Shown: positions 4,048-51,247, counted from the stretch's first letter. The stretch is DNA of 64,000 nucleotides from a bacterium (candidate division B38) B3_B38 (GCA_005223145.1 NJBL01000002.1:3541-67540), one strand, 5' to 3'. The notes: a model not told the origin generated them from the letters alone. Numbers and translations are program-made.

Positions 4048-4136
4048 TTTATCCCTCCTTTATTGCGTAAAAAATGTGCACTTGCATCTTTCACACTTAA
4101 GATATATGAATAAGCTTATATTTGAAACCTTAGCAT

Positions 4137-4154
4137 CTACAATTATAATTGTAG
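4137..4154. promoter_or_regulatory. 18-bp perfect palindrome CTACAATTATAATTGTAG (contains TATAAT) in the promoter region of the membrane hydrolase gene
   Basis: Read directly from the sequence. It is self-complementary over all 18 nt and lies about 90-110 nt upstream of the minus-strand start at 4047. Confidence 0.35.
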
Positions 4155-4190
4155 AGGTAAACGCTGCAGTTATAATCTGAGGAGTATGAA

Positions 4191-5435: not shown

Positions 5436-5699
5436 AATGAACCTCCTCATTTTTTATTACTCAAGAGATACATTCTTGTCTATTTTTACCTGAAAGTCAA
5501 CTGCAATTTTAGTCTCCGTAACCTTCTCATTTTTCGTTAATGACATCCACTTAATTATGGAATACAGTTATCTCTTTAAACTCAAAAAATTCGCCGCAAT
5601 ATCAATATGAGCTCAAATATCGATTTTTCCTTTTAACACTGTTTTATTCTATGGTAACATTGAGTCATGTTAAACTCTGATTTTTTTAAGGAGGTTATC

Positions 5700-7700: not shown

Positions 7701-7892
7701 CCGGTAGAAGATTTAGGGGTGAGTTTTCATTATTCGTTATTTGACCGTATAGTATTGAGGTAAGGTATAGATTTTAAAGGGCAAGCTGTTTTCCTCTTTA
7801 GTATCTTTTGCTTCTCTTTTCAGCTAAGATTCTCTACCTATATTCAAATGTAAGGCAAAATCTATCGGTAATTTCCCTGTCAAAAGGAGGTC

Positions 7893-10238
7893 ATGAGGAT
7901 GAAGGCTAAAACTATTTTCTCCACCATAATGGTATTCACCTTGTGTATTATTTTGCCGAGTATCGCCTATGCCCAGGGCACCAAAGAGGATTATGAGCGC
8001 GCTGAGAAGTTTCTCCCTGCTAACATCAAAAAGTATGCCTTCAAGCTCAGGGTTGAGCCCCATTGGATAGAGGACAGTGATAGCTTCTGGTATAAAAACG
8101 ATACCCGTGATGGAAAAGAGTTTCTATTTGTCGACCCGGTGCACAATATACGCAGACCAGCCTTTGACCATTCCAAGCTTGCAGCAGCGCTCACGCTGGC
8201 TACGGGTACTGAGTATCCAGCTAAAAAGTTGCCCTTCGAGAGCTTTGAGTTTATTGATGAGGGAAAAGCGATTCAATTTGAGGTAGAAAAAACTACCTGG
8301 AAGTGCGACCTGGCAACTTATAAATGTGCGAAGGTTGAGCGGAAGGAGAGACGTCCAGACGAGCTGCCATCTCCGGATGGCCGGTGGATCGCATTTGTGA
8401 AAAACTTCAATCTCTATGTGCGTTCAGCTGACACAGGAGAGGAGATTCAATTGAGCCATGACGGTGAGGCGTTGTACGACTACGCCACGCCATTGCCTTC
8501 GCCGGACCTGGAGGTGATGGTGAAAGAGGGTAAGCTGGTGGGAAAAGTGAGAGTGGCGGCGATCTGGTCTCCCGACTCAAAGAAGCTGCTATCCCATCGT
8601 ATCGACCAGCGGAATATCGGGCGGTTTCACCTGCTTCAGTCGGTGCCGCCGGAGGGCGGATTGCGACCCGTACTGTACTCGTATGCATATCCCCTTCCCG
8701 GAGATAAGGTTGTTCCTGTGGCGGAGCTGGTGATCTTTGATGTTGAGAAGAGAGCGCAGGTAGCGGTGGACTCTGAGCCGCTCCCCCTCCTGTATTACGG
8801 GTCTCCACTAATGGGGTGGAGCAGAGCCTACAACCGCATACAGTGGAGTGAGGATAGTCATCGCATCTACTTCCCCCACATAGAGCGTGGGTACAAGGCG
8901 CTAAAACTGCGGATGACCGATGCCGAAACGGGGCAAGCGCAGACAGTAGTAGAGGAACGGGCAGCGACCTATATGGACTCCTATGTTTCGTGGAAGGTGC
9001 GCATTATGAACGGCGGTTCCGAAGTCATCTGGTTCTCGGAGAGGGATGGCTGGGGTCACCTTTACCTCTATGACGGAAAGACCGGGGAGCTGAAGAACCA
9101 AATTACGAAGGGACAGTGGGTTGTTCGCGAGGTGCTGCATGTGGACGAAAAGGGTCGGTGGGTATACTTCACCGCAGGAGGACGGGAGGAAGGTCGGGAC
9201 CCCTACTATCGTCATCTCTACCGCATCAAGTTGGACGGCTCACACCTTGAGCTGCTGACACCGGAGGATGCAGAGCACGAGGTCACCTTTTCCCCGACAG
9301 GACGGTACTTCGTGGATACCTATTCCAGGGTCAATATGGCGCCCGTGTCGGTGCTGCGAGGCAGTCCGGACGGGGGTATCGTGCGTGAGCTGGAGAAGGC
9401 GGACCTTGAGCTGCTCCTGGCGATGGGATGGTGGTGGCCGGAGCCGTTCCGCACTAAAGCCCGGGATGGCAAGACCGATATATACGGGGCGCTCTTCCGC
9501 CCTTCGAACTTTGACCCGGAGAAGAAATATCCTGTTCTTGATTACATCTACGGAGGTCCGTCATCTGTTCAGACGCCTAAAGCCTTGAACGATAGAGGAA
9601 CACTGTGGGATGCCCAGGCCATAGCCGAATTGGGGTTCCTGGTGGTCACCATAGATGGGTTGGGGATGCCCTACCGGTCCAAAGCGTTTCACGATGTCTC
9701 ATATAAGAACCTGGGAGACGCAGGAATTGAAGACCATATCGCTGCGCTGCGGCAGTTGGCGACTCGCTACTCATATATAGACCTGAGCCGCGTGGGAATT
9801 TTCGGTCATTCCGCCGGTGGGTATTCCTCCACGCATGCTATTCTCGCCTATGCGGATTTTTTCAAGGTTGCCGTATCCTCAGCGGGAAACCACGACCATC
9901 GGCTCGATAAAGCCGTGTGGATTGAACATTATATGGGTTCTGAAGTAGAAGACCATTATCGGGAACAAGCTAATTCGACCATCGCCCATCAACTCAAGGG
10001 CAAGCTGCTGCTTGTTCACGGCGACCTGGACCAGAATGTGCATCCTTATTCAACCATTCAACTCGTTGATGCGCTCATCAAAGCGAACAAGGATTTCGAC
10101 CTGCTCATTTTTCCCAATCGGAATCACTCCTTAGGGAGAGACCCCTATTTCATTCGCAAGCGATGGGACTACTTCGTGAAACATCTGCTGGGCGTGGAGC
10201 CACCAAAGGAGTATAAGATTCAAATAGAACCGCAATAA
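7893..10238 (+). CDS. secreted S9-family dipeptidyl-peptidase IV-like serine peptidase
   Basis: Signal peptide ending AYAQG. N-terminal propeller, catalytic GIFGHSAGGYSS (Ser), LLLVHGDLDQNVHP (Asp), NRNHS (His). RBS AAAGGAGG. Confidence 0.75.
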   Translation: MRMKAKTIFSTIMVFTLCIILPSIAYAQGTKEDYERAEKFLPANIKKYAFKLRVEPHWIEDSDSFWYKNDTRDGKEFLFVDPVHNIRRPAFDHSKLAAALTLATGTEYPAKKLPFESFEFIDEGKAIQFEVEKTTWKCDLATYKCAKVERKERRPDELPSPDGRWIAFVKNFNLYVRSADTGEEIQLSHDGEALYDYATPLPSPDLEVMVKEGKLVGKVRVAAIWSPDSKKLLSHRIDQRNIGRFHLLQSVPPEGGLRPVLYSYAYPLPGDKVVPVAELVIFDVEKRAQVAVDSEPLPLLYYGSPLMGWSRAYNRIQWSEDSHRIYFPHIERGYKALKLRMTDAETGQAQTVVEERAATYMDSYVSWKVRIMNGGSEVIWFSERDGWGHLYLYDGKTGELKNQITKGQWVVREVLHVDEKGRWVYFTAGGREEGRDPYYRHLYRIKLDGSHLELLTPEDAEHEVTFSPTGRYFVDTYSRVNMAPVSVLRGSPDGGIVRELEKADLELLLAMGWWWPEPFRTKARDGKTDIYGALFRPSNFDPEKKYPVLDYIYGGPSSVQTPKALNDRGTLWDAQAIAELGFLVVTIDGLGMPYRSKAFHDVSYKNLGDAGIEDHIAALRQLATRYSYIDLSRVGIFGHSAGGYSSTHAILAYADFFKVAVSSAGNHDHRLDKAVWIEHYMGSEVEDHYREQANSTIAHQLKGKLLLVHGDLDQNVHPYSTIQLVDALIKANKDFDLLIFPNRNHSLGRDPYFIRKRWDYFVKHLLGVEPPKEYKIQIEPQ

Positions 10239-10243
10239 TCCGC

Positions 10244-12343
10244 TCAGAATTTCACCAGACCTATTTTCTGCAGGTCTTCGGCAAAGTGAAGGACGAACTC
10301 TATATCTGTCTCGTCGAATTCGCAGGATACAATATGTCTGATATCCAGGAGGGTACGCTTACCGTCCATCAGGTTTACGATTTCGTAAGTCTTGGAACCG
10401 TAGGCACCTCCAGCTTTCTGCCTGTTTTCCGCATACCACTTATTACTTTCTTCATCGAGCTTCTCCCTCAGGTAGTTCCAGGGCAGAGGACCCTGGAAAA
10501 GCCTCTGGGGCTTAAGGGAAGAGGCTTTTTTATATAAATCGGTAGGGCGGAATTCCTCTTTCTTTAAATTGTATTGACGGGTCAAGAGGTCGTATATTAG
10601 CTTTATTTTTTCCTTTTCGCTGGCGACCTGACGGTATATATCTTTAGCCAGCTCATCAATAATCTTTCTGCTTGCTTGTTTATCACAGAGTTCCGTTACC
10701 TCCCTTAAGTTTGTCGACTCGATACCAGCCTGAACATGAGGATAGTTGATTATGTTGAAGTAAAGCTCAGCTAAATGCTTGCTCTTTTCGGAGTCATAGA
10801 CGTATTGCTGAAGTAATCGAATGGATTTTTGGGTTCTCTCTACAATTCTCAGTATTGCCTGACTGTAAAGCTCACCAGCGATTTTTACCGCATCCTCATC
10901 ATCGGCGTTGGCTAAAAGGAGGGCGGCTGCCAGAGAGAGACTGATTATCCTCTTCATCTCCGTGGGGTCGCACTTATCGGGAGTATCCAGGCTGCTATGA
11001 TGAAAGACATCGCCGTGACCCAGCATGGGCGTGGGGATGGAAAAAGCGGAGTCGTTAAACATGATGTGGTCTGAGCCTCCACTATAGGGATTGATGCGGA
11101 AATTGAAGCGGTATCTGCTTCCCCGCGGAGAATAGAATACGCCTCCATCCAGCCAACCCAGCAGGTTAATAAGAACATCATTGATATAGCCAGGAACCGA
11201 ATAGGGAGAGCAAGTCAGGTTGAAGTTCGCCTGGCAGAGGGCATAATCCTCGCCAATCATATCCAGGTTCAACCCGGCAATGCCCTTATCCTTGAGGTCT
11301 TGATGCTCAGTAAGATAGGCTGCTGCTCCGTGTATTTCGGGAAGCCAGAGAAAACGAAGGGTTCTCCTGGGAGGCGGAATCTCTCCCCTGCTGACCAGAG
11401 CCAGGATGTTTCTCACCATCTCCACCATACCGGCTGAACCCGAGGCGTTGTCGTTGGCTCCGGGCTTATAATGGTCGAGGTGCCCCATGATGATAATCTC
11501 CTGGGAAGGATGTTCACTTCCGGTTATCTTAGCTTCGAGCACTGCCATCTCGCCGTCGAAAAGCTCAGCGTCCACCCTGGCCCGCATGGTTACCTTTTCC
11601 CCTGCTTTAAAGAGAGAAACAAGTTCCTTCTCCTGCCTTCTGGATAAGGCGAAGCCAAAGCCAGTCTTTTCTCTTTCCTCTCCAGTGGGTGAGAGGCGGC
11701 TGACCTCTATTAAATCGGGGTACGGAAGACGGTTCTCTCTATCCGAAGGTCCGACAATAACGCCACAAGCTCCTCTCTTTAAAACAGCTTGACGATGGAC
11801 CTGCGAGCCTCCGCCGCCGGTGGCGAAAACAAGCTTACCTTTGACATCTATATTTTTATAATTGGCGTCTGATTTCCCTCCGCCCACATAGATAACCTCA
11901 CTTTCCACCTCGCCACCCCGAGAGTAAGGCATCAGGCTCACCGCCTGGTCGGAATAGCGGGCGAGAAGCTTTTTGTAAGGTTCCACCAGCCATAATTCAG
12001 CCTCTTTCACTCGCCAGCCGACGAGGGAGTTCCAGAGGAAATATTTTTTGAAGCCGTCGGCTGTATATCTTTTAATAATGACCTCTTCAAGCCCCATTTT
12101 TTTCAACTCATTGGCCAGGTATTCAACGCAGCGATTGTAATCAGAGCCCTCTCCTCCGCCCCTTATACGGTGAAAGCGCGATATTTTGGAAACCATATCC
12201 CAGGCTCGCTCCCCTGAAACCTCGTTTTGAATAGCTTCTAACAGCTCCTTATCAAGGAGATAGGGGTTGTCCTGAGGATAGACAAACAGAGAACTGGAAA
12301 GAAAGAAGATGATGGTGAATAATAAAAGAATCCTTTTTACCAT
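10244..12343 (-). CDS. secreted M28-family zinc aminopeptidase with large C-terminal extension
   Basis: Signal peptide MVKRILLLFTIIFFLSSSLFV after RBS GGGAGG. M28 metal-ligand motifs MGHLDHY and GANDNASGSAG. Confidence 0.65.
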   Translation of the reverse strand: MVKRILLLFTIIFFLSSSLFVYPQDNPYLLDKELLEAIQNEVSGERAWDMVSKISRFHRIRGGGEGSDYNRCVEYLANELKKMGLEEVIIKRYTADGFKKYFLWNSLVGWRVKEAELWLVEPYKKLLARYSDQAVSLMPYSRGGEVESEVIYVGGGKSDANYKNIDVKGKLVFATGGGGSQVHRQAVLKRGACGVIVGPSDRENRLPYPDLIEVSRLSPTGEEREKTGFGFALSRRQEKELVSLFKAGEKVTMRARVDAELFDGEMAVLEAKITGSEHPSQEIIIMGHLDHYKPGANDNASGSAGMVEMVRNILALVSRGEIPPPRRTLRFLWLPEIHGAAAYLTEHQDLKDKGIAGLNLDMIGEDYALCQANFNLTCSPYSVPGYINDVLINLLGWLDGGVFYSPRGSRYRFNFRINPYSGGSDHIMFNDSAFSIPTPMLGHGDVFHHSSLDTPDKCDPTEMKRIISLSLAAALLLANADDEDAVKIAGELYSQAILRIVERTQKSIRLLQQYVYDSEKSKHLAELYFNIINYPHVQAGIESTNLREVTELCDKQASRKIIDELAKDIYRQVASEKEKIKLIYDLLTRQYNLKKEEFRPTDLYKKASSLKPQRLFQGPLPWNYLREKLDEESNKWYAENRQKAGGAYGSKTYEIVNLMDGKRTLLDIRHIVSCEFDETDIEFVLHFAEDLQKIGLVKF

Positions 12344-12463
12344 TTTTAAACCTCCCTGCAATAAAGGTTTCAATCTATGGGGATAAATACTTTGTAATTC
12401 ACCACTCCTTCAGTTTGAGGACTTAAACGGCAAGTCTGCTGTCACATCTACCTTTTAAGATAT

Positions 12464-13744
12464 TTACCTGCTTAACTTTTTCTCAAATTTATTTGAAACC
12501 TCAATACCTGACAAATCTGTAAGCACTTTTAAAAACTGTTCTGTCGATTTCACCTTATTTATTATCAGTCGTTTTAATAACTGCAGAAAATTATCATTAC
12601 CAATTTCTGCTTCCAGTTCGTGAAGTAAAATACAACCTTTATCATACAAGACAGTAGAGGCATTTTCATCCATTCTGTCTATTCCCTTAATCGCAGGCAT
12701 ATTTTTAGATTTTTGGCGCTTAGCTTGTATCAAATCTTTAAATGTTTCGTTTCCGAATTTCTCTCTGACAGCCATTAATGCAGAATACTCAGCAAATGAT
12801 TCATTAAGCCAATCTTCCCAGGTATTAGTAGGAGCATTAAGCCACCAAATATGAGCAAATTCGTGAGCAATGTACCTGAAATAACCGATTTTGTTTTGGT
12901 AATAATCTTCATCTTCAAAATGATTAAAAACAACAAAACCCCTTCTGGCATAACCTCCGCCTATATTTCTTGGAGCAATAACAATCGAAGCCTTATATGC
13001 TTTGATATCACTAAACCATTCACCATAGTTGTCTAATATCCACAGACCTTGTTCCATCATATCAACTGCGGTAGAATCACTCGTAGCAGTGTAACTTATA
13101 TCCATACTCAAACCATTTCTTTGGTTCTTTTTCGTATGAATTTCTTTAGCTGCCATTATGATAATATCATTTGTAGGATTTTCCTGTGAAACCTGCCAAT
13201 AATCGTCCAATTTTTTTGTCTTGCCCATACCAATAATTTGATATTCTGGGTCGATTTTTACATCCACGATATATGTGAAGTTTTCAATTGCAGGCTGATA
13301 AGGAAACCAGGGAGTATACATACCCAGCTCTATCCATTCTTTCGTTATACGATTTATCTCCCATTGCGTTACAACTCCTATTTTCCCGACATATTGCAAA
13401 TTGATTTGTAGCGCTTCGCCTTTTTGTAGTGGTTTGCTCAAGTGAATCGTAAGCGTACCTGCTTCTGGTGTAAAAGGGAAAGCACAGGGATCTTCTGTAT
13501 TAAATGTGTATTCAACAAGATTTTTACATGTTAGAGTTTCAATGGAAAGATTTCTATGAAGATAAAATGTTAAAATGTCAACCCGTTCTTTTTTGGCATA
13601 GTAGGTTAAATCAACATTAGCATTGAGCAGCTGCCTATTTACATCGAGTTTGAGATCAATTTTATAAAAACTGGTGCCAGTTTTCTCTGTAACAAAACAA
13701 CTGGTCAATATAATTAACAGCAGTAAGCAGAATGTCCATCTCAT
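12464..13744 (-). CDS. gluzincin metallopeptidase, M1 aminopeptidase-like (short form), lipoprotein or secreted
   Basis: HEFAHIWW...WLNESFAEY gives HExxH-(18)-E spacing typical of M1. N-terminus MRWTFCLLLLIILTSC has a signal sequence with lipobox-like LTSC. Start moved to the internal Met at 13744. Confidence 0.55.
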   Translation of the reverse strand: MRWTFCLLLLIILTSCFVTEKTGTSFYKIDLKLDVNRQLLNANVDLTYYAKKERVDILTFYLHRNLSIETLTCKNLVEYTFNTEDPCAFPFTPEAGTLTIHLSKPLQKGEALQINLQYVGKIGVVTQWEINRITKEWIELGMYTPWFPYQPAIENFTYIVDVKIDPEYQIIGMGKTKKLDDYWQVSQENPTNDIIIMAAKEIHTKKNQRNGLSMDISYTATSDSTAVDMMEQGLWILDNYGEWFSDIKAYKASIVIAPRNIGGGYARRGFVVFNHFEDEDYYQNKIGYFRYIAHEFAHIWWLNAPTNTWEDWLNESFAEYSALMAVREKFGNETFKDLIQAKRQKSKNMPAIKGIDRMDENASTVLYDKGCILLHELEAEIGNDNFLQLLKRLIINKVKSTEQFLKVLTDLSGIEVSNKFEKKLSR

Positions 13745-14103
13745 TGGAATCTCACCCGTTATATTTTTAAATTTCGGATGATGTTCCTGGGCTTTGCGAA
13801 GCTGACGCAGGCAGTGTGGGCGTAGGGAGTGAGCCGCTAAGCCAGGATTATCTGTCATTTGCCACAAAGTTACGACTCCTTACCTCGTAGCGCACTTACA
13901 AGTCCAGCCAATACAGCGCCAAAGAGGGCTACTTTAAACGCAGTGCACCAAGATATTGACCCTGCTATCAAGATTTGCTTAACAGCTCTCTTATATGGCT
14001 TTAAGATTTATGACCTAATTATCTGCTTCTAAAGCTATTTTCGATTCCCACGGTATCGCCACTCGGGCTTTTTCAATCCGTTGCGGGAATTTTCGCTGGC
14101 TGG

Positions 14104-27035: not shown

Positions 27036-28601
27036 CTAAGGCTGCATGTCCTCCAGAACCCTTTTGAACCCGCAGTGTTGACATACCCTCTCCTCCTGGG
27101 AGCACCAATCTTGATATATCTGAAGAAGCCCCTGTTGTCTTCGGGCGCTGTTGACAACCCTTTTTAGCCGATTTTCATAAGCAAAAAGCCTGTGTTCCAT
27201 ATATCTCAACAGGCTGTTGGAAGGCAACCTGGGATACCAGTAGTAGAAGCGAGCCAGGAGATTTTCCAGCTGTTTATGCTCTTTATTTCGCGCATATAAT
27301 AGCAATGCAGGAATTATAACATTCACTATAATGGCAGCCGCTCTCCCAGAACCGATTAACCGGATGGTCTTTTTCAACTTTTTCCCTGCAAAGGAGTAGT
27401 GCCAGCTCCAGTAATCCTCTTCCTCTACGAAGCCGAATAGCTCTTTCAACTCTTTGTCTATCCTTTTAAAAGGGGTTTCTTGTGCTGAAATCCCCGGAGT
27501 GCAAAATATCATTAGTAACTTATGAAGGGGAGTTAAGAGAAAGATTCGGAGAAGAAAGTGGCACATGCCGGCTATGCGTCGAGCAGGGAAGTTAGCTGGT
27601 CGCATTCCACTTTTCCATATATCCCAGGGTAGCACTTTATCCTGATATCGCCCCTTCAATCTCTCCCAGCTCTGCTCCAGCTCTCGTATATACTTATCTT
27701 GGAAAACCGCCGGCTTAAGCGGAAGCTCCTGCTGGCTGGGCAATATACCAGCCGTCCCGAAGAAGAGCGCTTGCAGAGTTATCCCCCAGATGGATGGTTT
27801 GGTTGATGACAATAATTCCCTTATCTCTTTCAAGGGAAGCCGACGGGCAAGGAGCAAGAACTGCTCCTTGTTCCGCTTGAAGCCCAGCGCCTCCATAATC
27901 CTTTCGTAAATGACCTGATTGTAATCCTCCCGGGAGAGCTCTTTTTCGAAGCGGTTGGCTTTGCTGGCTATTCGAGCATCCCCGGCTAAGTCTAAAAGCT
28001 CACCCACTTTCCTTAATTCCTTGGCTCTAATGATCGAATAGCAGGAACCCTGGCTGGAAGGAGAAGCGAAGGGGTAAGCGGAAGAGTTTATGCTGGAGGA
28101 AAGGGATGTCAGTTCGGTATCCAGGGCATAATAAAGGGGGAGTTGGGGTATCTCCCTCCCCGCAGAATTGACCAGCCTCTTGTTCGCCCCCAAATCGTCC
28201 CACATTATTACATGGAGAATAACATTATCATAATTTTTATCCTGATGATGATTGTGGGCAAACCATTCAGAAGCTAAAACATGGACTTCAATATCACCCC
28301 TCAATGCCTCTGTGGATGATATCTTTATAGCCGATTGGATAAAATCGGGACCGGACTCCGAGTTCCACTTACCCGGAGAGAGAACCTCCACCTTTTCACC
28401 CGAGTTTGTTCTAAGCCTATCCTTGCATAGACGCTGGTCGAACCATATACTCTGCACCAGCTTCTCCGCAATCCGCTTCTCCAGTCCATACTTAGAAAAG
28501 ACAACTCTACTCTCTCTTGTTATCCAATAGGTTGTGAGCTTCTTAAAGTAATTTTCGAAGAAGCCCTGGCTATCTTCCCATTTTCTTTCTTGCCCATTCA
28601 T
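27036..28601 (-). CDS. large hypothetical protein (possibly DUF2851-like)
   Basis: 521 aa with no catalytic motif recognised. The segment SGPDF...DIEVHVLASEWFAHNHHQDKNYDNVILHVIMWDD recalls DUF2851, but this is a weak, memory-based match. Confidence 0.35.
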   Translation of the reverse strand: MNGQERKWEDSQGFFENYFKKLTTYWITRESRVVFSKYGLEKRIAEKLVQSIWFDQRLCKDRLRTNSGEKVEVLSPGKWNSESGPDFIQSAIKISSTEALRGDIEVHVLASEWFAHNHHQDKNYDNVILHVIMWDDLGANKRLVNSAGREIPQLPLYYALDTELTSLSSSINSSAYPFASPSSQGSCYSIIRAKELRKVGELLDLAGDARIASKANRFEKELSREDYNQVIYERIMEALGFKRNKEQFLLLARRLPLKEIRELLSSTKPSIWGITLQALFFGTAGILPSQQELPLKPAVFQDKYIRELEQSWERLKGRYQDKVLPWDIWKSGMRPANFPARRIAGMCHFLLRIFLLTPLHKLLMIFCTPGISAQETPFKRIDKELKELFGFVEEEDYWSWHYSFAGKKLKKTIRLIGSGRAAAIIVNVIIPALLLYARNKEHKQLENLLARFYYWYPRLPSNSLLRYMEHRLFAYENRLKRVVNSARRQQGLLQIYQDWCSQEERVCQHCGFKRVLEDMQP

Positions 28602-29217
28602 CGTAATACTTCAAGTAGGTGTTAGCCACCTCCGTGGGGTCAAGCTGGAGGCACCTGGCATACTCTATGAGGAAGCCCCTCAGATATATCCTGCAAGGGA
28701 GAGCTTCGTAATTGTCCTTTTCTATGTTTTCTAAAGTTTCCACGCTTATTTTGGTAACTTTTGAAATATCGTTCAGTTCTACCTGCTTCAATATTCTCAT
28801 TCGCCTGAGAAACTCCCCTTTGTATATGCCCTCCTCCTGAGGAAACGACCCCTTCTCTTCGGTAACCTCTCCTCCTTGGAAAGATACCTCCTGACCCCGC
28901 TCAGGAGCTACCGCCAGCCCTCTCTGGAAGAGCTCCTCTGGCTTTAAGCGTCCCTCTTGTATCATTTCCTCATTGTATGCCTCCCTCCTCCTCTCATTCA
29001 CCAAGACCTGGTAAGCCTCATCCAAAGCCCGGGAGGTATTTTCCAGCTCTTCCTCGGAAAAGAGGGAGTAGATTGCCAGAGAGTCTGGCTGGTAGATGCT
29101 CTTCAGCCGCTTATAGGCTTCTTTTATCTCCTCCTCGGTAGCAGAAGGGGAAACCCCTAAGAGCTCATAATGGCTTGGCTTGGGCAGGTCTTCAGGGAAA
29201 AGCCTGTATTGTCGCAT
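28570..29217 (-). CDS. J-domain-like (HPD replaced by QPD) plus RodZ-type HTH (HTH_25) protein
   Basis: N-terminal YELLGVSPSATEEEIKEAYKRLKSIYQPD is a J-domain helix II-III with Q in place of the catalytic H. C-terminal LNDISKVTKISVETLENIEKDNYEALPCRIYLRGFLIEYARCLQLD matches the RodZ N-terminal HTH. Confidence 0.5.
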   Translation of the reverse strand: MRQYRLFPEDLPKPSHYELLGVSPSATEEEIKEAYKRLKSIYQPDSLAIYSLFSEEELENTSRALDEAYQVLVNERRREAYNEEMIQEGRLKPEELFQRGLAVAPERGQEVSFQGGEVTEEKGSFPQEEGIYKGEFLRRMRILKQVELNDISKVTKISVETLENIEKDNYEALPCRIYLRGFLIEYARCLQLDPTEVANTYLKYYDEWARKKMGR

Positions 29218-29240
29218 CTTATCCTCTGATTAGTTAGAAA

Positions 29241-30176
29241 TCACCTCTCATAACCGACAAGCAACCGATTAGTGACATTCCTGATAGCCTTAGCGACGCC
29301 GGAATCGGGGTACTTTAGAAGGAGGGGCTTCCTTAATCTGGTCGATTCCTCCACTTGCAAGTCGTAATCAATGTAGCCCAAATACTGGAGAGCAACCCCC
29401 ATGGCACCCTCGCAGACCTTCTCGATGGAATAGCCAAGTGTTCTGTGGTCAGGGGTGGTAGTCCAGTTCAAAATGAGCTTGACTCCAAAGCGGGCGAGTT
29501 CCTCTTCGATTTTCTTCCTAACCCCTTCATTCAACATCCCTCCCGCTTCACTAATTATCTTAGCCACCCTTTTTACTCCCCATTCCCCTTCCTGGTCAAA
29601 GGATGCCTCCCATCTCTTTCTTGTACTGAGATCCGGGATTAGAGTGGTTAACCTTCGCCAGAGGGCGGTCTTGATAAATTGGAAGAAGTTTTCAATGGAG
29701 GCTGGCTCTGGTCGGGCAATTACCACCTTATGATGGGCTATGAGAAAAAAATCGAGGACATTAAAGGAGACACCGGTCCCCAAGTCTAAGATGATGAAGT
29801 CTGCTGAAAGCCTTTTGATCGCCTTGAGGAGCGCCATTTTCTTCTTATAAACTATATTGGCTACCCCCAATGGGGCTTTACCTCCGGGGATGAGGGAAAG
29901 ATGGGGTACACCGGTCTGAATTGCAGCCGGGGCTAAATTGGACACCTTGCCAGAGATGAAATCGGAGAGAGTGAGCCCTTTGAGGGGGAGGTCCAGATAG
30001 GTATGAAGATTGGCATTACCGAGGTCTGCGTCAACCAATATCACCTTCTTGGAAAGCCCGGCAATGTGGATTCCTATATTAGTAGCCAGAAAGCTCTTCC
30101 CCACACCGCCCTTCCCGCTGCCCAGAGCTATAATTATTCCGCCAGCCTGACTGCAGTCCAATATATCTCGGAGCAT
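29241..30176 (-). CDS. MinD/FlhG(FleN)/ParA-family P-loop ATPase
   Basis: Deviant Walker A GSGKGGVGKS. VILVDADLGNANL and the DLGTG Walker B region are present; fold length typical of MinD/FlhG. Confidence 0.7.
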   Translation of the reverse strand: MLRDILDCSQAGGIIIALGSGKGGVGKSFLATNIGIHIAGLSKKVILVDADLGNANLHTYLDLPLKGLTLSDFISGKVSNLAPAAIQTGVPHLSLIPGGKAPLGVANIVYKKKMALLKAIKRLSADFIILDLGTGVSFNVLDFFLIAHHKVVIARPEPASIENFFQFIKTALWRRLTTLIPDLSTRKRWEASFDQEGEWGVKRVAKIISEAGGMLNEGVRKKIEEELARFGVKLILNWTTTPDHRTLGYSIEKVCEGAMGVALQYLGYIDYDLQVEESTRLRKPLLLKYPDSGVAKAIRNVTNRLLVGYER

Positions 30177-30210: not shown

Positions 30211-31062
30211 CTAAGGAATCTCTTTGGAAGAGGTTTTTAGCACCTCGTTCATGCTCCCTGTGCGGTATCCTTGCAGGTCTAATGTTATATATTTGTATCC
30301 CAGACTTTTAAGCTTCTTTACAACTTTTTCGACCACAAGAGACGCGAGGAAACGGGGAATCTCTGAGGAGAGCACCTCAATGCGCGCCACATCCCCATGG
30401 TGACGAACCCGAACCTGCTGGAAACCGAGTTTCCTCAAAAAATCCTCCCCCTGATTTACAGCCTTCAACTTCTCCCCAGTGATGGTGGCATGATAAGGAA
30501 ATCGGCTTGCCAGGCAGGCTGACGAGGGGAAGTTCCAAGTCGGCAGACCGGCCTTTCGGGAGAGATAACGAACCTCATCCTTGATAATTCCGACATCTAT
30601 CAAAGGGCTTAAAACCTTAAGCTCCTGCGCAGCCTTCAATCCGGGGCGGAAATCCGAAGTATCATCCAGATTGCTCCCATCAACAACCACATTATAACCC
30701 TTCTCTGCTGCAATTTCTTTCAATCGGGTGAAGAGCTCAATTTTGCAATAATAGCAGCGGGAAGGGGGATTAGAGCGGAATTGAGGAGACGCCAGCTCAT
30801 TGGTAGCGATAACTGTATGAGCTATCCCGTAACGGTGGGTGAAATCTTTCGCTCTTTTCAAATGGTGCTGAGGATAAAGGGAACTCTGGGCGGTCACTGC
30901 CAGAACCTTATCCTTCAGGACTAACTGGGCTATATAGAGCAAATAGCTGCTATCCGCTCCCCCGCTGAAAGCCACCACCACAGAACCGTAGCCCCGCAAA
31001 AGCCCTTTGAGCCTCTTCTCCTTTTCCTCCGGGGAAAGCCCTTCTTTATATTTATTTCCCAT
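30211..31062 (-). CDS. larE: PP-loop ATP pyrophosphatase, LarE-like (sulfur transferase family)
   Basis: PP-loop VVAFSGGADSS, conserved CYYCK, and C-terminal region typical of the LarE / TIGR00268 family. Confidence 0.6.
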   Translation of the reverse strand: MGNKYKEGLSPEEKEKRLKGLLRGYGSVVVAFSGGADSSYLLYIAQLVLKDKVLAVTAQSSLYPQHHLKRAKDFTHRYGIAHTVIATNELASPQFRSNPPSRCYYCKIELFTRLKEIAAEKGYNVVVDGSNLDDTSDFRPGLKAAQELKVLSPLIDVGIIKDEVRYLSRKAGLPTWNFPSSACLASRFPYHATITGEKLKAVNQGEDFLRKLGFQQVRVRHHGDVARIEVLSSEIPRFLASLVVEKVVKKLKSLGYKYITLDLQGYRTGSMNEVLKTSSKEIP

Positions 31063-31230: not shown

Positions 31231-32349
31231 GTGGATGAGGTGATTGACCTGAAAAATTGGAGGAGAGGCTTAACAATTTTTCTGTTTACCATCTTTTACT
31301 TGTTTCTCTCACCCTTATTCAGGGAAAACTATGCCTGGCAGGAGGAGAGAGGAGCAAAATTCCGCAAGCTGTGGGAGTTCCAGGTTGGAGAAGCCACCAA
31401 TTTTACGTCTTCCATAGCCATTCTCACCCAACCTATTTGTGATGCGGAGAAGGTCTATTTCGCCTCCGAAAACGGAACCTTCTATGCCTTGAATATTGTC
31501 AGTGGAGAAAGGGTCTGGGAATTCACCGCCGGCAGTCCAGTTCGACAGAGTGCTACCTTGGGGGACCACAGCCTTTTTGTGGCCACCTCGGGCATGGAAG
31601 CACTATCTCTGGACCTCATTACTGGAAATCTGCGCTGGAGAAGGAGGATGGACGGCGAAATCTTCACTCCCTTAATCTTCAATAAAGGTGCTTTGTATTT
31701 CGGCTTTTCCCGATATATCGCTTGCTTGAGAGCCTCTGATGGGGAAGAGATATGGAGATTTGAGACTGGGGATGAAGTCCATGCTCCCCCAATTATTGAA
31801 GGTGAATTCCTTTATGCGGGTTCGGACGACGGCTTCCTCTACGCTCTCACCCCACGAGAGGGTAGGCTTCGGTGGAAATTCTCCACCTCCGGGAAAATCG
31901 TAGCTGCTCCCCTGCTGTTTGAAGGAACGCTCTTTGTGGGAAGCTACGACAACTACATCTACGCTCTACACCCCGACTCAGGAAAGCAGAAATGGAAGAA
32001 AATCACTGGCGGGGATGTGAATTGCCGCCCGATAGGATGGGAAAAGTGGGTATTTGTTTCCTCCTTAGACAATTTTCTATATTGCTTGCAGGTGAAAAAC
32101 GGCTATCTCTCCTATAGGTTCAGACTTCCTTACCGCCTTTACCACTCGCCGGTAATTTCCGGAGACCTCCTGTTTATGGCTCCCTTATCTGATACACTGG
32201 TCGTTATAGACCCCATAAATGGGGAGAAGGTGGGTGGTTTTACTGCTCCTTCCTTGATAACCTCCCCTCCTGGCCTGTCCCCAAATGGAGATATCATCTT
32301 CATCGGTACTAATAAGGGGCTCCTCATCGCCCTCAAATTGATAAGTTAG
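31231..32349 (+). CDS. PQQ-like beta-propeller repeat protein (BamB-like)
   Basis: N-terminal membrane anchor. Repeated roughly 40-aa units of the form G.lYa....G.l.A......W. Confidence 0.55.
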   Translation: MDEVIDLKNWRRGLTIFLFTIFYLFLSPLFRENYAWQEERGAKFRKLWEFQVGEATNFTSSIAILTQPICDAEKVYFASENGTFYALNIVSGERVWEFTAGSPVRQSATLGDHSLFVATSGMEALSLDLITGNLRWRRRMDGEIFTPLIFNKGALYFGFSRYIACLRASDGEEIWRFETGDEVHAPPIIEGEFLYAGSDDGFLYALTPREGRLRWKFSTSGKIVAAPLLFEGTLFVGSYDNYIYALHPDSGKQKWKKITGGDVNCRPIGWEKWVFVSSLDNFLYCLQVKNGYLSYRFRLPYRLYHSPVISGDLLFMAPLSDTLVVIDPINGEKVGGFTAPSLITSPPGLSPNGDIIFIGTNKGLLIALKLIS

Positions 32350-32524
32350 TTAGCGACTTGGTAAATATCCAATTGAGATTGGCTATAAATTTATGAAAAA
32401 AGATTTAAAATAGATGTGGAAATGCAGAGATGTAATCCGAGAATGGTTAAAACAACATTATTTAGAAACCTTCAGTATCTTAAAAACATTCTTTGTATTT
32501 AGATTTATACTTTTACTCATTGTT

Positions 32525-33619
32525 TCACAGAAGAAAGCCATATACAATGTGTTCTAAATCATTGTAATTATTTGAGATGATTTTAAACTTTTCTAAATTT
32601 AATTCCATAGCCATTGATTTCAGCCTTTTTACATCAGACTCTCGAGGGTTTAGCTTTACCTCATATGCCTCTTTTTTATCCAGAATAATGTCAATTTCTA
32701 CCCCATTTTTTCTTTGATAATAATTGAACTCTCCCTTAGGCCTAAGATTCTGAAAAATACTGTTTTCGAAAAGGCTTCCCATATCCAAGTTAGCAAAATG
32801 ATTGGCTATACCGGTATCACATAGGTAAACCTTAGGCATCTTTCTAATCTCAGAATTTCTTCCTTTACTAAATGGTCTTATTGTTTTTATGAAGTATATA
32901 CCCTCCAAGAAAGAAATATATTCGCTCAATGTTGGACGAGAAATACCCAATTCTCTTGAGATATTTTGAATATCTAATTTAGAACCAAGCCGTTGCATCA
33001 AAAGTAACATTAAATCTCGAATAGCTTCGTTTCTTCGAAAATCCCCTAACTGTAGAATTTCCAGTTGAAAAAAGGAATTGAAGATTTCTTCTAATGCTTT
33101 TTTCTTCTCTTGAGCATTAGATTTTAAAACTACTCCTGGAAATCCGCCAAATTTAATATATTCATCATATAAAAGAGAAATTTCGTCAAAGATCGGTTGG
33201 GTGATATGGCGCGCATTCTCTGGTATTCTTAAAGAGCTTCCTTTGAATAAGAGACATTCACTAAAACATAAAGGAAAAAGCTCAAAAATATATTTCCTTC
33301 CAGAAAGCGATTCTGTGAAAAGGTTTTTTAAGTAGAAACTGGCTGAACCGGTCAAGAAGAATTTTACTTGATAATGGTCAATAAAATATTTAACGACTGA
33401 AGGTAGATTTTTTACAAACTGTATCTCGTCCAAAAATATGAACGGCTTACTCGTAAAATCAATTCCTAAACTCTCAAACGAGAACTTGATTCGCTCATAA
33501 TTACGCTCTTCAAAATATTTTCTATTTAATGGATTTTCTAAATCTAAAAAAACTTTATTTTTCGAGGCAATTTGACTATCAATAAATTTGAGAAGCGTCG
33601 TTTTACCAGTCCTCCTCAT
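32525..33619 (-). CDS. AAA+ ATPase of the COG1373/DUF4143 family; N-terminus lacks an ATG (possible pseudogene or ATA start)
   Basis: The track ORF begins inside the Walker A (GMRRTGKTTLL). The frame stays open 27 codons further upstream (…IVKPRLIFNTIKAYLDSPEAIIVTG), with ATA at the position where family members have Met. The gene lies in a low-GC segment. Confidence 0.55.
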   Translation of the reverse strand: MRRTGKTTLLKFIDSQIASKNKVFLDLENPLNRKYFEERNYERIKFSFESLGIDFTSKPFIFLDEIQFVKNLPSVVKYFIDHYQVKFFLTGSASFYLKNLFTESLSGRKYIFELFPLCFSECLLFKGSSLRIPENARHITQPIFDEISLLYDEYIKFGGFPGVVLKSNAQEKKKALEEIFNSFFQLEILQLGDFRRNEAIRDLMLLLMQRLGSKLDIQNISRELGISRPTLSEYISFLEGIYFIKTIRPFSKGRNSEIRKMPKVYLCDTGIANHFANLDMGSLFENSIFQNLRPKGEFNYYQRKNGVEIDIILDKKEAYEVKLNPRESDVKRLKSMAMELNLEKFKIISNNYNDLEHIVYGFLL

Positions 33620-33695
33620 TCCAGTAACGATGATTGCCTCGGGAGAATCAAGGTATGCTTTGATTGTGTTAAATATTAGCCTTGGTTTGACTATA

Positions 33696-33765
33696 CATTA
33701 CTATTTGTCAAGTATATTTCACATATAGTAATACTATTTGCAAAATATATTTTACATATAGTATA
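33696..33765. repeat. two imperfect tandem ~33-bp direct repeats (…ACTATTTG-N5-TATATTT(T)ACATATAGTA…) upstream of the AAA+ ATPase gene
   Basis: cattactatttgtcaagtatatttcacatatagta and atactatttgcaaaatatattttacatatagta lie side by side in an AT-rich intergenic region. Confidence 0.4.
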
Positions 33766-33893
33766 AACGAACTTAAAAATGCAAAATAAACCTCCATGCC
33801 AATTGAAATAAGTCTTGGATAAAGGATAAAAATAGCCCTGAAAGAAAGATAATACCATCCAATAAGACTTAAAAGAAGTTAAATAGAAAGGGC

Positions 33894-34817
33894 TTAAATC
33901 AAACCCTTTTCCTTAAGGTAGGCTTCGGCTGCGATGGCAGCTGTTGTGCCGTCGCTCATAGCATTGGTGATTTGCTTAGCTAACTGGAATCGGATATCCC
34001 CGGCAGCAAAGACCCCCTCTGCCGAGGTCAACATCTTAAAGTCGGTCTTAATGTAGCCTCTCTCGTCCAGCTCCAGATTTTTATTCAGGAGCTTACTGTT
34101 GGGTACAAATCCTATATAAATAAACACCCCGCTGACCTCAAGAGGGCTATTTTTGCCTGTCTTCACATTCCTCAGCAAAAGTCTCTCCACCGTCTCCTTC
34201 CCCTCTATCCTTTTTATTATGGTATCCCAGATGACCTCTACTTTAGCATTCTCAAGAAGTTCCTCTTGAAGCTCCTTTTTAGCTCGCAAGCTATGCCGTC
34301 GGTGAATAAGATAAACCTTCTGGGCAAACTTAGTTAAATATACAGCCTCCTGTACCGCAGCATCCCCCCCGCCGACTACTGCGATGGTCTGCTCGGCGAA
34401 AAAGGGTCCATCACACAGAGCGCAATAAGAAATTCCCTTCCCCAGAAACTCTTTCTCTCCCGGAACATTAAGCCACCTTGGCTCACCCCCCGCAGCCAGA
34501 ATTACCGCCCCTGCGTGGTAGGTACCTTTTGCCGTTTTTACCACCTTCGCATTCCTTTCGCTGTGAATCTCCTTCACTTCTTCCAGCTTTATATTCGCCC
34601 CGAACCTTCGCGCATGCTGTTCCATTCGCTGGGCTAATTCAAGCCCGGAGATACTATCAAATCCCGGACAGTTCTCAATCCTCTCGGTATTTAAAATCTG
34701 CCCTCCGGGCATCTTCTTTTCCAGCACCAGAGTATTGAGCTTTGCCCGGGCACAATACAGCGCAGCTGTGAGACCTGCTGGCCCCCCTCCCACAATTATG
34801 ATATCGTATCTCTCCAT
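33894..34817 (-). CDS. trxB: thioredoxin-disulfide reductase
   Basis: FAD motif [10 protein letters not shown], redox-active CALCDG, NADPH site. Confidence 0.85.
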
Positions 34818-46590: not shown

Positions 46591-47079
46591 TTACCAATCT
46601 TTATATTTAGTGCCATCCAAGGCAATTCCTTCGCTTTTAGAGTAAACATCGAAGACATTCTCCCCTCCCCAAGAGGTGGAATCAAAATCATCCTGATAGG
46701 AACGCATTTCCCAATCGGTGGAGTTAGTCATCGGGTCACGGGGTATGCGGCGCAAAAATTTCTTCATTACATCCAGTTTACCCACCTCTTCCACGCCCTC
46801 GACCAGAGCCTGGAGATCGGGGGGATAGCCTTCGGAGCCGAATTCTGCCGTAATCTGCCCCAGGTCAACCATTTTTTTATATTCGTCGATTGCCCTTCTT
46901 ATAATCCTCAGATTCTCCCGCAGCTCAACCTCTTTAGCCCTCTTGATGGCGATTCGGGCTACCGGCAGGATGGATGCAGCTAAAACAGATATGATGGCTA
47001 CTACCACCATTAGCTCTGCCAGGGTAAACGCCGATGTAGAGCCTCGCATATTGATTTTGGAAGCCAGAACCTTTATCAT
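46591..47079 (-). CDS. type IV pilin-like / T2SS GspG-like pseudopilin (second copy)
   Basis: SAFTLAELMVVVAIISVLA prepilin N-terminus. C-terminal ...LDGTKYKDW is paralogous to the neighbouring pseudopilin. Confidence 0.7.
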   Translation of the reverse strand: MIKVLASKINMRGSTSAFTLAELMVVVAIISVLAASILPVARIAIKRAKEVELRENLRIIRRAIDEYKKMVDLGQITAEFGSEGYPPDLQALVEGVEEVGKLDVMKKFLRRIPRDPMTNSTDWEMRSYQDDFDSTSWGGENVFDVYSKSEGIALDGTKYKDW

Positions 47080-47088
47080 CCTTTCTCC

Positions 47089-49353
47089 CTATTGGACCTG
47101 AATCTTCGCCGGCACAAAATTAGCGGGGAGAGTGTTAGAGGTGGCATCGCGCACACTGTTATTGGAGAAGACTATATCCGTGCTCCCTGCACCGACTGCC
47201 TTGAAAACCACAGTGCACAATATCCCCGACCCATCCACTCCGGTATCCTTCCCTAACCTGGCGAGACTCACCCTCAGCTGTCCTCCCTTATTGTCATAAT
47301 CCCTGACGAAGCTCACCTGGGCACCATCCTTTCCCAATAAGGGTCCCATAGTTACCTCTACTATCTGCAGAACATTGGGGTCAAAGCCCAGATTGAAGGG
47401 TACATGCCCCACATTACGAGCGTTGTCGAGATTGATGTTGACCGAAAATCTTTCTTCCCGAAAGACGATAAGGCTGGCTGGGGTTATGGAAACCTCAGCG
47501 GGAGTGAGTTCTTCACCCATCTCTTCTGGTTCTGGCTCTGCTTCTTCTTCCTCCGGTGGCGACTCCTCGGCTGGAGGGGTTTCCTCCTCTGTCTCCTTTT
47601 TAGCGGGAGCTGGCTTCTCCTCAGGCGGCTTCTCCCCTGCTGGCTTCATCTCTTCCATTACTGCTCTCTCCTCCAATTCGGCAATGGGTGGCGCCTCTCT
47701 ATAAACCATAGCCCTTTCAGTCCCCGCCCAAATAGCCCTCAGGTCTTCCTCGGTAATGTTGGGGGTTTTGATGATGTGAGGGGTCATGGTAAGAACGATG
47801 TCGGTTTCTACATTCTGGGAAAGCTCTTTGGAGAAAATTTTGCCTAATATAGGTATATCGCTCAACCCCGGGATACCAGAAATGGACTTGCGCTCCTCGA
47901 ACCTTATCAAACCTGCCAGCAGGTTGGTCTCCCCATCCTTCAACCTTATTGTTGATTCTATCATCCGGCTGGTGAAGGTTGGCTGCCCTTCCAGCATTTC
48001 GGCCAGAATCGATTCTATCTTCACTGTGAGTGCGAGGGTGATCTCGTTGTTATGGTGCACTCGGGGGGTCAAATCTATCTGAATCCCTACTCGGCGATAC
48101 TGGTAGGAGTGAATAGGGGTCACCACTCCGATAGTCTGTGCCGGGGTGATGGTGGTCACCCGGATGGGGATTTCCTCTCCGATGAACAGAGAAGCCTTTT
48201 CCCCTTCGGTGATTCTGAGCTGAGGCTTGGCCACGAGGCGGGCGTCACTGGTCTGCTTCAGCAGGGTATAAGTAAAAGAGGGAATAGTCAGGAACCAATC
48301 GGCTTGACTGATATAGGGGATTTGAGAAAGACGGATACCGGTCTCCTCCTGAGCCAGGCCCTGAGTAATGCTGTAACTGCTAAGCAACAAGCCGTATTCG
48401 TTGAGCTTGGTTCGGTTAACCTCTAATATCTCAAGGTCAACTATGACCTCCCCTTTCGATTTATCAGCTCGGTTAATTAACTTTTCGGCAAGGGCAATGA
48501 TATCGGCTGAATCGCGAATGGTGACGGAATTGAGCTGAGGATCCGCGGAAATGTTCCTAATCCCCAGAACGGTGCGGAGCCCCTGTAAGACACTTTTGAC
48601 TTCGGCGTTAGACAGGTAAAAGGTCTGGATCACCAGTTCAGTATACTCCCTTCTCTTGGCCGGGTTGTCGGGGACTACAACTATAGTGGTTGGATTGACG
48701 ATCTTGTAAAAATGACCATTAGTGGTTACCAGAGAATCTAACGCATCCAGGAAGGAGACATTGGCCACCTCAAAGCTCATCTTGCGGTCTCTGATGGTGG
48801 GGTCTAACAGGATGTTTATTCCCGAAAGCTTGGCTAAAGCGGTGTAGACTTCCTTCATGTTGTTGCTGGGGAAGCTAAGGGTAATCTTTTCCGGGGATTT
48901 GGGGCTCAAGTAGACAGGAGGAGCCTTCTCAGTCTCTACCTTCTCTTTGAGCATCTCAATCTCGGTCTTCTCTCTAAGCCTCTCAGCTTCCTCCTCTACC
49001 TTGGCTCGGGCTTTATCCATTTCGATGAGGGCAAGCTGATTGGTGGAGTCTAACTCTATCGCCAACCGAAACTCCACCATTGCTTGCTCGATGTTCTCCT
49101 CTTCCATCATCTGTTTTGCCTTGCTCAAATGCACCTTTGATGCCTGACGACGAGCAGTTTCCAGGCTCAGGCGGTAAGCGAGGTTGTCGGGGTTCAATTT
49201 CATGGCTTCGAAGTAATAGAGCACCGCCTGGTCCCAATCGCCCTCTCTCTCTGCCTGCACTCCCCTCTTATAGGTTTTGGTAGCTGCACAGCCGGCTAAA
49301 AAGAAGAGAAGGAGAACGATTACCAACCTTTTTATTAATAACCCGTTTTTCAC
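47089..49353 (-). CDS. pilQ: secretin (PilQ/GspD family) with N-terminal lipoprotein-TPR module and C-terminal Pro/Glu-rich linker plus cohesin-like domain
   Basis: Lipobox LAGC followed by TPR-like helices. Secretin C-domain ending ...DIVLTMTPHIIKTP. Then the PEEKPAPAKKETEEETPPAEESPPEEEEAEPEPEE linker. The final 140 aa (NLGFDPNVLQIVEVTMGPLL...GSGILCTVVFKAVGAGSTDIVF...AKIQV) match the type-I cohesin beta-sandwich pattern. Confidence 0.8.
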   Translation of the reverse strand: MKNGLLIKRLVIVLLLFFLAGCAATKTYKRGVQAEREGDWDQAVLYYFEAMKLNPDNLAYRLSLETARRQASKVHLSKAKQMMEEENIEQAMVEFRLAIELDSTNQLALIEMDKARAKVEEEAERLREKTEIEMLKEKVETEKAPPVYLSPKSPEKITLSFPSNNMKEVYTALAKLSGINILLDPTIRDRKMSFEVANVSFLDALDSLVTTNGHFYKIVNPTTIVVVPDNPAKRREYTELVIQTFYLSNAEVKSVLQGLRTVLGIRNISADPQLNSVTIRDSADIIALAEKLINRADKSKGEVIVDLEILEVNRTKLNEYGLLLSSYSITQGLAQEETGIRLSQIPYISQADWFLTIPSFTYTLLKQTSDARLVAKPQLRITEGEKASLFIGEEIPIRVTTITPAQTIGVVTPIHSYQYRRVGIQIDLTPRVHHNNEITLALTVKIESILAEMLEGQPTFTSRMIESTIRLKDGETNLLAGLIRFEERKSISGIPGLSDIPILGKIFSKELSQNVETDIVLTMTPHIIKTPNITEEDLRAIWAGTERAMVYREAPPIAELEERAVMEEMKPAGEKPPEEKPAPAKKETEEETPPAEESPPEEEEAEPEPEEMGEELTPAEVSITPASLIVFREERFSVNINLDNARNVGHVPFNLGFDPNVLQIVEVTMGPLLGKDGAQVSFVRDYDNKGGQLRVSLARLGKDTGVDGSGILCTVVFKAVGAGSTDIVFSNNSVRDATSNTLPANFVPAKIQVQ

Positions 49354-49394
49354 TCTTCCTCCTTAAATGACATAATCCATACCGATTATACAAA

Positions 49395-50024: not shown

Positions 50025-50071
50025 CTGGGAAACCTCTTTTTATATAATATCAGTCTCCTTGCTCTATCTAT

Positions 50072-50620: not shown

Positions 50621-50664
50621 TGACTCCCTTTATCAGAACCTATAGCAGAAGTTTCTATAAATGG

Positions 50665-51243: not shown

Positions 51244-51247
51244 AGGC

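Follow-up and report, generated by a model that had tools for sequence, protein, structure and literature searches.

A conserved gene pair of an FlhG-like ATPase and a J-like/RodZ-type helix-turn-helix protein, probably a cell-organisation module, in candidate division B38

ATPases of the ParA/MinD family set the location of chromosomes, septa, flagella, chemoreceptor arrays and carboxysomes; what defines each of these systems is its adaptor. A stretch of 64,000 nucleotides from the bacterium (candidate division B38) B3_B38 (GCA_005223145.1 NJBL01000002.1:3541-67540), referred to here as the window, raises the question of what kind of adaptor such an ATPase can have. Its minus strand holds two adjacent genes, the first for a deviant-Walker-A ATPase of the FlhG/FleN/MinD clade and the second for a small protein, here called J-HTH, in which a J-like domain with QPD in place of HPD is followed by a helix-turn-helix (HTH) of the RodZ type (Table 1). 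A preliminary description of the window had noticed this architecture, called it unusual, and proposed that the two proteins form a paired module for spatial regulation that could act in cell division or in the placement of the pilus machinery. Our analysis suggests that the pair is probably a cell-organisation module, and we put at about 0.7 the probability that it is a dedicated module of ATPase and adaptor, with the J-like domain as a docking domain that has no chaperone function.

To what extent do the two genes belong together? One genome per GTDB species was scanned and 25 loci with a full-length J-HTH gene were retrieved. The carriers were Ca. Aminicenantes (81% identical, the group from which the window was judged most likely to derive), Vicinamibacteria, Syntrophaceae, Desulfarculales, Desulfurivibrio and other Thermodesulfobacteriota, along with Syntrophorhabdus, Halobacteriovorax, Bacteriovoracaceae, Nitrospinota and Myxococcales; the named carriers are metagenome-assembled genomes (MAGs) or little-studied isolates. 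A homologue of the ATPase, with 35-86% identity in tblastn searches with the window protein, was located directly upstream on the same strand in 24 of these 25 loci, the exception being L013, where the J-HTH gene begins 96 nt from the contig end. Look-ups begun from ATPase homologues, including one in a Leptospirillia (Nitrospirota) genome, found a gene for a J-like domain with HTH_25, the Pfam family of the HTH, directly downstream in all six cases (spacing -4 to +21 nt), and a look-up from the J-HTH homologue P0012 found the ATPase gene directly upstream. At locus L088 the J-like part was missed by Pfam and detected by BLASTP. The genes were thus neighbours in every informative locus, which settles in favour of the pairing the survey of related genomes that the preliminary description had proposed, and on the 24 loci and the six reciprocal look-ups chance adjacency was rejected.

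The pair occurs in at least six phyla (Acidobacteriota, Thermodesulfobacteriota, Bdellovibrionota, Myxococcota, Nitrospinota and Nitrospirota), its intergenic spacing ranges overall from -4 to +23 nt, and the module is chromosomal and apparently single-copy. Clustering of the open reading frames (ORFs) of the loci left the ATPase and J-HTH as the only genes common across clades, the flanks being made up of unrelated housekeeping genes that differ by group. HMMER was run exhaustively against 1.84 billion cluster representatives, of which 1,644 matched J-HTH with E <= 1e-10; among the 150 best, nearly every one carried both DnaJ and HTH_25 (the noted exception being P0100, described below). The architecture, carried by at least 150 clusters (50% identity), is therefore not rare, and the word unusual holds in another sense: we found no published study, in the literature searched, of a DnaJ/HTH_25 architecture with a MinD/ParA/FlhG ATPase.

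The two genes have also been joined into one. About 16 of the best 150 cluster representatives are single-polypeptide fusions in the order ATPase, J-like domain, HTH; they are mutually less than 50% identical and come from different data sources, and Pfam confirmed the architecture for six of them. A further protein of 448 aa (P0246), a single MAG sequence, fuses the ATPase to HTH_25 without the J-like domain, as would be expected if the J-like domain served merely as a tether. Taken together, the synteny over at least six phyla, the overlapping or nearly overlapping junctions and the repeated fusion provide strong evidence that the ATPase and J-HTH work together, probably in physical contact. 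The proposal of a paired module is therefore sustained as far as one functional unit is concerned.

What may the J-like domain contribute to such a unit? The preliminary description had reported a degenerate J-domain, and the Pfam DnaJ model recognises it with 50.2 bits (cut-off 27.8) over residues 16-82. In phmmer searches against PDB sequences, residues 13-83 align to the J-domain of E. coli DnaJ (1bqz, 5nro), with Q43-P44-D45 placed exactly on H33-P34-D35. The AlphaFold model of J-HTH (mean predicted local distance difference test, pLDDT, of 77) consists of two helical domains with a disordered linker between them; helices of the J-like domain are predicted at residues 16-20, 28-41, 55-73 and 75-87, and Foldseek superposes the domain on solved J-domains with a target-normalised TM-score (TMt) of 0.8-0.9. 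J-HTH has the four-helix fold of the J-domain proteins (Hsp40) and lacks their HPD. The loss extends to the entire family: in an alignment of 160 homologues and the window protein (161 rows) HPD is found in none and HVD in one, and the tripeptide is QPD or QPG in close homologues and RVD, SQN, EAG or REM in distant ones. Position 43 is variable (S39/G35/A30/Q17 and others), P44 is kept in 40% and D45 in 58% of the members. A sequencing error, which the preliminary description had named as the finding that would speak against it, was rejected as the source of QPD since HPD is wanting throughout.

The residues right after the tripeptide are better kept than the tripeptide itself, as S46, A48, Y50 and L52 are conserved in the family and make up a family motif (S46-x-A48-x-Y50-x-L52) within a loop that is 5 residues longer than that of DnaJ. 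Across the family the domain has a mean net charge of -4.8, whereas a count by hand gives the J-domain segment of E. coli DnaJ about +1; basic residues are still present on helix II of the J-like domain. The HPD motif is needed for stimulation of the ATPase activity of Hsp70, and its loss family-wide points to a different partner for the J-like domain, which we regard as a true J fold and almost certainly not an Hsp70 activator. Precedents for J-like domains without HPD are ZipN/Ftn2/ARC6 in cyanobacterial and plastid division and Pam16/Tim16 (PMC7766704, PMC3806816). These resemble J-HTH in the reuse of an HPD-less J fold for protein-protein interaction in a cytoskeletal or motor setting, but they share no sequence kinship with it beyond the J fold and differ in partners and architecture. 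A related protein of 679 aa (P0100) carries five or six tandem repeats of a J-like domain related to that of the family. The linker that follows the J-like domain is variable as well as disordered, and among homologues about 40 to more than 200 residues separate the J match from the HTH match.

The C-terminal HTH described earlier as RodZ-like is likewise borne out. HTH_25 matches residues 137-197 with 67.2 bits (cut-off 24.6), so that the domain search places both halves of the protein above the Pfam cut-offs, and HTH_19 and HTH_31 match more weakly. The HTH also matches the solved cytoplasmic domains of RodZ from T. maritima (2wus_R, in complex with MreB), Ct009 of Chlamydia (4gqm) and YmfM of S. 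aureus (3fym), and in the AlphaFold model it superposes on RodZ 2wus with a TMt of 0.8 and a root-mean-square deviation of 1.8 Å. In RodZ this XRE-fold HTH binds MreB and RodZ itself, not DNA (PMC6946637), and its binding to MreB depends critically on F60 and Y64 in E. coli, the equivalents of Y66 and F70 of Ct009 (PMC4047632, citing van den Ent et al. 2010). Y178 and F182 of J-HTH align with Y66/F70 of Ct009, and positions 178 and 182 are aromatic in 98% and 100% of the 161 members, respectively. The two are among the best-conserved positions of the HTH, together with G134, R141, E166, P174 and G181. In the putative recognition helix the exposed positions (159-161, 163 and 164) vary and carry +0.5 charges on average, and the window protein has the glutamates E160 and E163 there; T155 and K156, just ahead of helix 159-166, are conserved, and the net charge of the HTH is +1.6.

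J-HTH is like RodZ in the family and fold of its HTH and in the retained aromatic pair of the MreB contact, but it is not organised like RodZ, whose HTH is N-terminal and followed by a membrane anchor. The HTH of J-HTH stands behind the J-like domain and the protein ends 13 residues beyond it. J-HTH is soluble rather than bitopic: no hydrophobic segment was seen by eye in its sequence, of which no transmembrane scan was made, and there is none in the two confidently modelled domains. The NCBIfam models for RodZ score it far under their cut-off. In the genomes with J-HTH there are, in addition, one or two HTH_25 proteins of the canonical membrane-anchored kind, for example L031 and L032 in the genome of L005, L044 and L060 in that of L003 and L034 in that of L015. 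These are either short forms of an HTH with a transmembrane segment (about 135-145 aa) or full RodZ-like proteins with a periplasmic domain (about 270-320 aa). Since canonical bitopic RodZ is kept, J-HTH appears to be an extra soluble paralogue of RodZ and no replacement for it.

The ATPase, whose GSGKGGVGKS motif and MinD/FlhG likeness had been recognised beforehand, matches the Pfam families ParA, CbiA and AAA_31. In a 47-member alignment G21, K22, G23, G24, G26 and K27 of the deviant Walker A motif, D49 and D51 of switch I and D131 of Walker B are invariant. The PDB sequences that it matches are FleN (5j1j, 1.3e-20), FlhG (4rz2) and archaeal MinD, over the N-terminal half only. Its AlphaFold model (pLDDT 87.6, predicted TM-score 0.89) ranks FleN first (E 4e-17, TMt 0.88), followed by FlhG, archaeal MinD, bacterial MinD and Soj/ParA, so that the nearest relatives by sequence and by fold are FleN and FlhG (YlxH) (5j1j, 8p53, 4rz3). 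With these it has in common the switch I motif DADLGxAN and the deviant Walker A with its signature lysine; the PEPTS motif of helix 7 is presumably common to them as well. Helix 158-177 of the ATPase (PEPxSxENxYxFxK) is among the most conserved stretches of the family, and we take it to be the counterpart of the helix 7 with which MinD binds its partners MinE and MinC.

The differences from FlhG and FleN are equally marked. An insertion of about 50 residues with three helices (about 183-229) is present relative to the matched structures, and the tail beyond the last core helix is only 6 aa in the window protein (family median 10 aa). No conserved amphipathic segment was found at the C-terminus in the family tails examined, and the ATPase accordingly lacks the helix that targets MinD and FlhG to the membrane and is a defining feature of both. 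Its N-terminus is short and varies across the family, and no DQAxxLR motif, by which FlhG activates FlhF, was seen in it by eye. The flagellar context is wanting too, as none of flhF, fleQ, flagellar, minC or minE genes was found beside the ATPase gene, either in the window or at any of some 33 related loci, and in the place of FlhF, FliM/FliY or FleQ the partner is a J-like/HTH protein. With MinD the ATPase shares the clade, the deviant Walker A and the switch aspartates, and a dedicated partner gene immediately downstream; it departs from MinD in the missing membrane-targeting sequence and min genes and in its NCBIfam scores, all of which fall a long way short of the equivalog cut-offs (80.8 bits against 201.75 for minD_arch, 60.1 against 212.9 for minD_bact). 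The ATPase is a separate paralogue of FlhG-like character whose catalytic set is intact, and given the complete deviant Walker A set it probably dimerises in an ATP-dependent manner.

These properties suggest how the module could work. The ATPase would dimerise on binding ATP and, lacking a membrane-targeting helix, would need its partner for localisation. The J-like domain would most probably dock on the ATPase, as the fusions, the synteny and the covalent fusion without a J-like domain (P0246) suggest, and the conserved helix 158-177 is a plausible docking site. At the other end of the long flexible linker, the RodZ-type HTH may bind MreB through the aromatic pair known from RodZ. An ATP-bound dimer would in that case present two MreB-binding heads and the nucleotide state of the ATPase would be coupled to MreB filaments, and hence to cell-wall growth, cell shape or polarity. 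We hold this full scheme, with MreB as the target of the HTH, to be tentative and its chances somewhat short of even. If the HTH does bind MreB, the module would be, to our knowledge, the first direct link of a ParA/MinD-type ATPase to the actin-like cytoskeleton, and it would add a bacterial example of the J fold reused outside the Hsp70 cycle. A bolder extension, which we consider doubtful, is a hitherto unrecognised cytoskeletal system spread over several phyla in which a soluble RodZ paralogue tethers an FlhG/MinD-type ATPase to MreB, so that dimerisation cross-links, patterns or regulates the cytoskeleton alongside membrane-bound RodZ. More speculatively, the HPD-less J-like domain may have been redeployed onto an ATPase of the actin fold (MreB, FtsA or PilM) rather than onto the MinD-like ATPase, a thought suggested by the actin fold that MreB shares with the nucleotide-binding domain of Hsp70.

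Several observations weigh against MreB as the target. No mreB gene occurs in the window or in any J-HTH locus, which is weak evidence given that rodZ of E. coli is not known to be adjacent to mreB either. Canonical RodZ is encoded in the same genomes and a second MreB binder is not obviously needed. Conservation of the aromatic pair and of the remaining well-kept positions of the HTH may be partly structural, as these are features general to HTH_25. Moreover, most known activators of ParA/MinD ATPases are short basic peptides rather than folded domains of acidic charge, and the XRE-type fold and the resemblance of the gene order to a parA-parB cassette turn attention to DNA. The HTH could bind the nucleoid, a centromere-like site or an operator, and the ATPase could position cargo or modulate transcription, as in type Ib partition cassettes, in ParA of type Ia that bears an HTH itself, or in FleN acting on FleQ. 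In par operons, too, the gene for the ATPase comes first and one for a small HTH protein second, HTH_19 and HTH_31 are recognised along with HTH_25, T155/K156 are conserved in a slightly positive HTH, the nearest fold match FleN works with a DNA-binding regulator, and CbpA (3ucs, among the fold matches) shows that a J-domain protein can bind DNA. We regard this as the main rival reading and as somewhat less probable than the one with MreB. The exposed residues of the recognition helix, where DNA would be contacted, are variable and about neutral, with two glutamates in the window protein; the ATPase is closer to FleN, FlhG and MinD than to Soj or ParA; no iterons, centromere-like repeats or notable palindromes were found in or around the gene pair; and, the flanks being different in each clade, no cis site is conserved next to the genes. 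The characterised members of HTH_25, the RodZ domain, bind MreB and not DNA (PMC6946637).

A role closer to MinD is also conceivable, in which the pair regulates the division site or polarity by acting on the divisome or another cargo than MreB and the J-like domain is the cargo binder. The clade of the ATPase and the location of a single-copy chromosomal module amid housekeeping genes would agree with it, and localisation of ZipN to the Z-ring requires its J-like domain (PMC7766704). We find it improbable, however, as no minC, minE, ftsZ or other divisome gene stands beside the pair in about 33 loci, the membrane-targeting helix is missing, and the strongly conserved RodZ-type HTH would be left without a role. 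Placement of pili or flagella by a genuine FlhG or a pilus-positioning ATPase, as the preliminary description had supposed for the pilus machinery, is very improbable. It can draw on FleN and FlhG as the best structural matches, on the FlhG label that JGI gives to many homologues and on the type IV pilus cluster in the same window, but that cluster is 17 kb away, and in none of the clades does the pair have flhF, a flagellar gene or a pilus gene as its neighbour. By eye, the DQAxxLR motif is missing from the short variable N-terminus, the C-terminus has no amphipathic helix, and the FlhG label is also attached to J-HTH proteins without any ATPase family in Pfam, which makes it an annotation artefact. 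J-HTH might finally be a specialised Hsp70 co-chaperone that hands the ATPase or a client bound by the HTH to DnaK despite the altered tripeptide. The true DnaJ fold and the persisting basic residues of helix II are compatible with this, yet it is scarcely credible for a family in which HPD, established as required for Hsp70 stimulation, is found in 0 of 161 members, P44 and D45 are poorly kept, the domain is acidic overall and the loop is lengthened by a family-specific motif.

Among known two-gene cassettes of an ATPase followed by an adaptor, the dedicated module favoured here resembles type Ib ParA/ParB (with HTH or ribbon-helix-helix adaptors), PomZ-PomXY and McdA-McdB, and J-HTH would by analogy be expected to supply the target and to regulate the ATPase cycle. 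In contrast to ParA/ParB, the ATPase is closer to FleN and MinD than to Soj, and no centromere-like repeats were found near the pair. We know of no ParA/MinD system with an adaptor made of a J-like domain and a RodZ-type HTH. CbpA-CbpM offers a parallel in that the adjacent gene encodes the protein that binds the J-domain, and 3ucs is among the top fold matches; but CbpA keeps HPD and is a true co-chaperone, and CbpM is no ATPase. This would be, in the literature searched, a ParA/MinD-family ATPase with a previously undescribed type of adaptor, a chaperone-dead J domain joined to a RodZ HTH, on an orphan yet widespread FlhG-like ATPase. The orphan ParA1/ParA2 of Bdellovibrio, whose neighbours have been described as without homology to known proteins, were considered and are probably not this module. 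An identity as a defence system was rejected, as the anti-phage models of PADLOC gave only marginal matches (E > 0.003).

The public databases label these proteins 'helix-turn-helix domain-containing protein', 'curved DNA-binding protein CbpA', 'DnaJ-class molecular chaperone', 'FlhG' or 'P-loop NTPase'. Many J-HTH proteins of 197-218 aa (P0293, P0294, P0301, P0306 and others) are called 'flagellar biosynthesis protein FlhG' by JGI, and their precomputed Pfam annotation comprises DnaJ and HTH_25 and no ATPase family. This label is probably an error spread from the fused ATPase-J-HTH forms, and on the ATPase itself the name 'FlhG' is unjustified; our results thereby correct a propagated annotation.

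In the window the pair belongs to four closely packed ORFs on the minus strand, identified by ORF, Pfam and NCBIfam scans, which encode LarE, the ATPase, J-HTH and a DUF2851 protein in this order (Table 1); the ATPase and J-HTH genes are found just where the preliminary description had placed them. The ATPase gene has the ribosome-binding site GGAGAG and the J-HTH gene AGAGGA; the latter starts 23 nt beyond the stop codon of the ATPase gene, and its 3' end is overlapped by 32 nt by the DUF2851 gene. A promoter-like site was noticed at 31125-31096, from which the four genes may be transcribed as one unit. The linkage to DUF2851 downstream and LarE upstream was seen only in two Aminicenantes relatives (L001 and L002). 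A larger conserved operon with LarE and DUF2851 was rejected, both being missing from the loci of the other clades.

Table 1. Positions of the gene pair, its domains and motifs and its immediate neighbours, counted from the first letter of the window
Feature	Position	Strand	Basis or remark
Deviant-Walker-A ATPase of the FlhG/FleN/MinD clade, 311 aa, first gene of the pair	29241-30176	-	ORF, Pfam, fold
Deviant Walker A motif GSGKGGVGKS (signature Lys22, P-loop Lys27/Ser28)	30093-30122	-	translation
J-HTH partner, 215 aa, second gene of the pair	28570-29217	-	ORF, Pfam DnaJ and HTH_25
J-like domain, residues 16-87, DnaJ fold without HPD	28957-29172	-	Pfam, phmmer, fold match
QPD tripeptide at the HPD position	29083-29091	-	translation; alignment to DnaJ
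Disordered, variable linker, residues 98-129	28831-28926	-	pLDDT < 50
RodZ-type helix-turn-helix (HTH_25), residues 134-202	28612-28818	-	Pfam, alignments, fold
LarE gene	30211-31062	-	upstream of ATPase gene
DUF2851 protein gene	27036-28601	-	Pfam 245.9 bits

Another setting of the pair recurs elsewhere. In Bdellovibrionota and several other clades (loci L016-L018, L081-L083 and L085-L087) it is directly followed by a gene for an RluD-type pseudouridine synthase (PseudoU_synth_2), and most such loci also hold a Cu-oxidase_4 gene (PgeF/YfiH-like, peptidoglycan-editing); in L084 and L088 the same genes sit a few genes further downstream. This setting, missing from Aminicenantes and the Syntrophaceae group, may represent the ancestral context of the pair and hints weakly at a link to the cell envelope.

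In the rest of the window, the cluster related to type IV pili and type II secretion is located at 46591-55146 on the minus strand and encodes an N_methyl prepilin, a secretin, PilO, PilM, a PilB-type ATPase with an MshEN domain and PilC; no pilus genes accompany the pair in the other clades among the loci surveyed. The secretin of 754 aa (47089-49353) has an unusual C-terminal cohesin domain and an N-terminal TPR. A dip in G+C content at 32001-34000 (0.347 against about 0.48) coincides with an ORF for an AAA_14/DUF4143 ATPase (32525-33619, minus strand), and this low-GC stretch may be a recently acquired insertion. Peptidase genes are dense at 1654-13867, where M20/M28, two S9 types (prolyl oligopeptidase/DPP-IV), M28 and M1 are encoded, a run that fits a protein- or amino-acid-degrading lifestyle of Aminicenantes.

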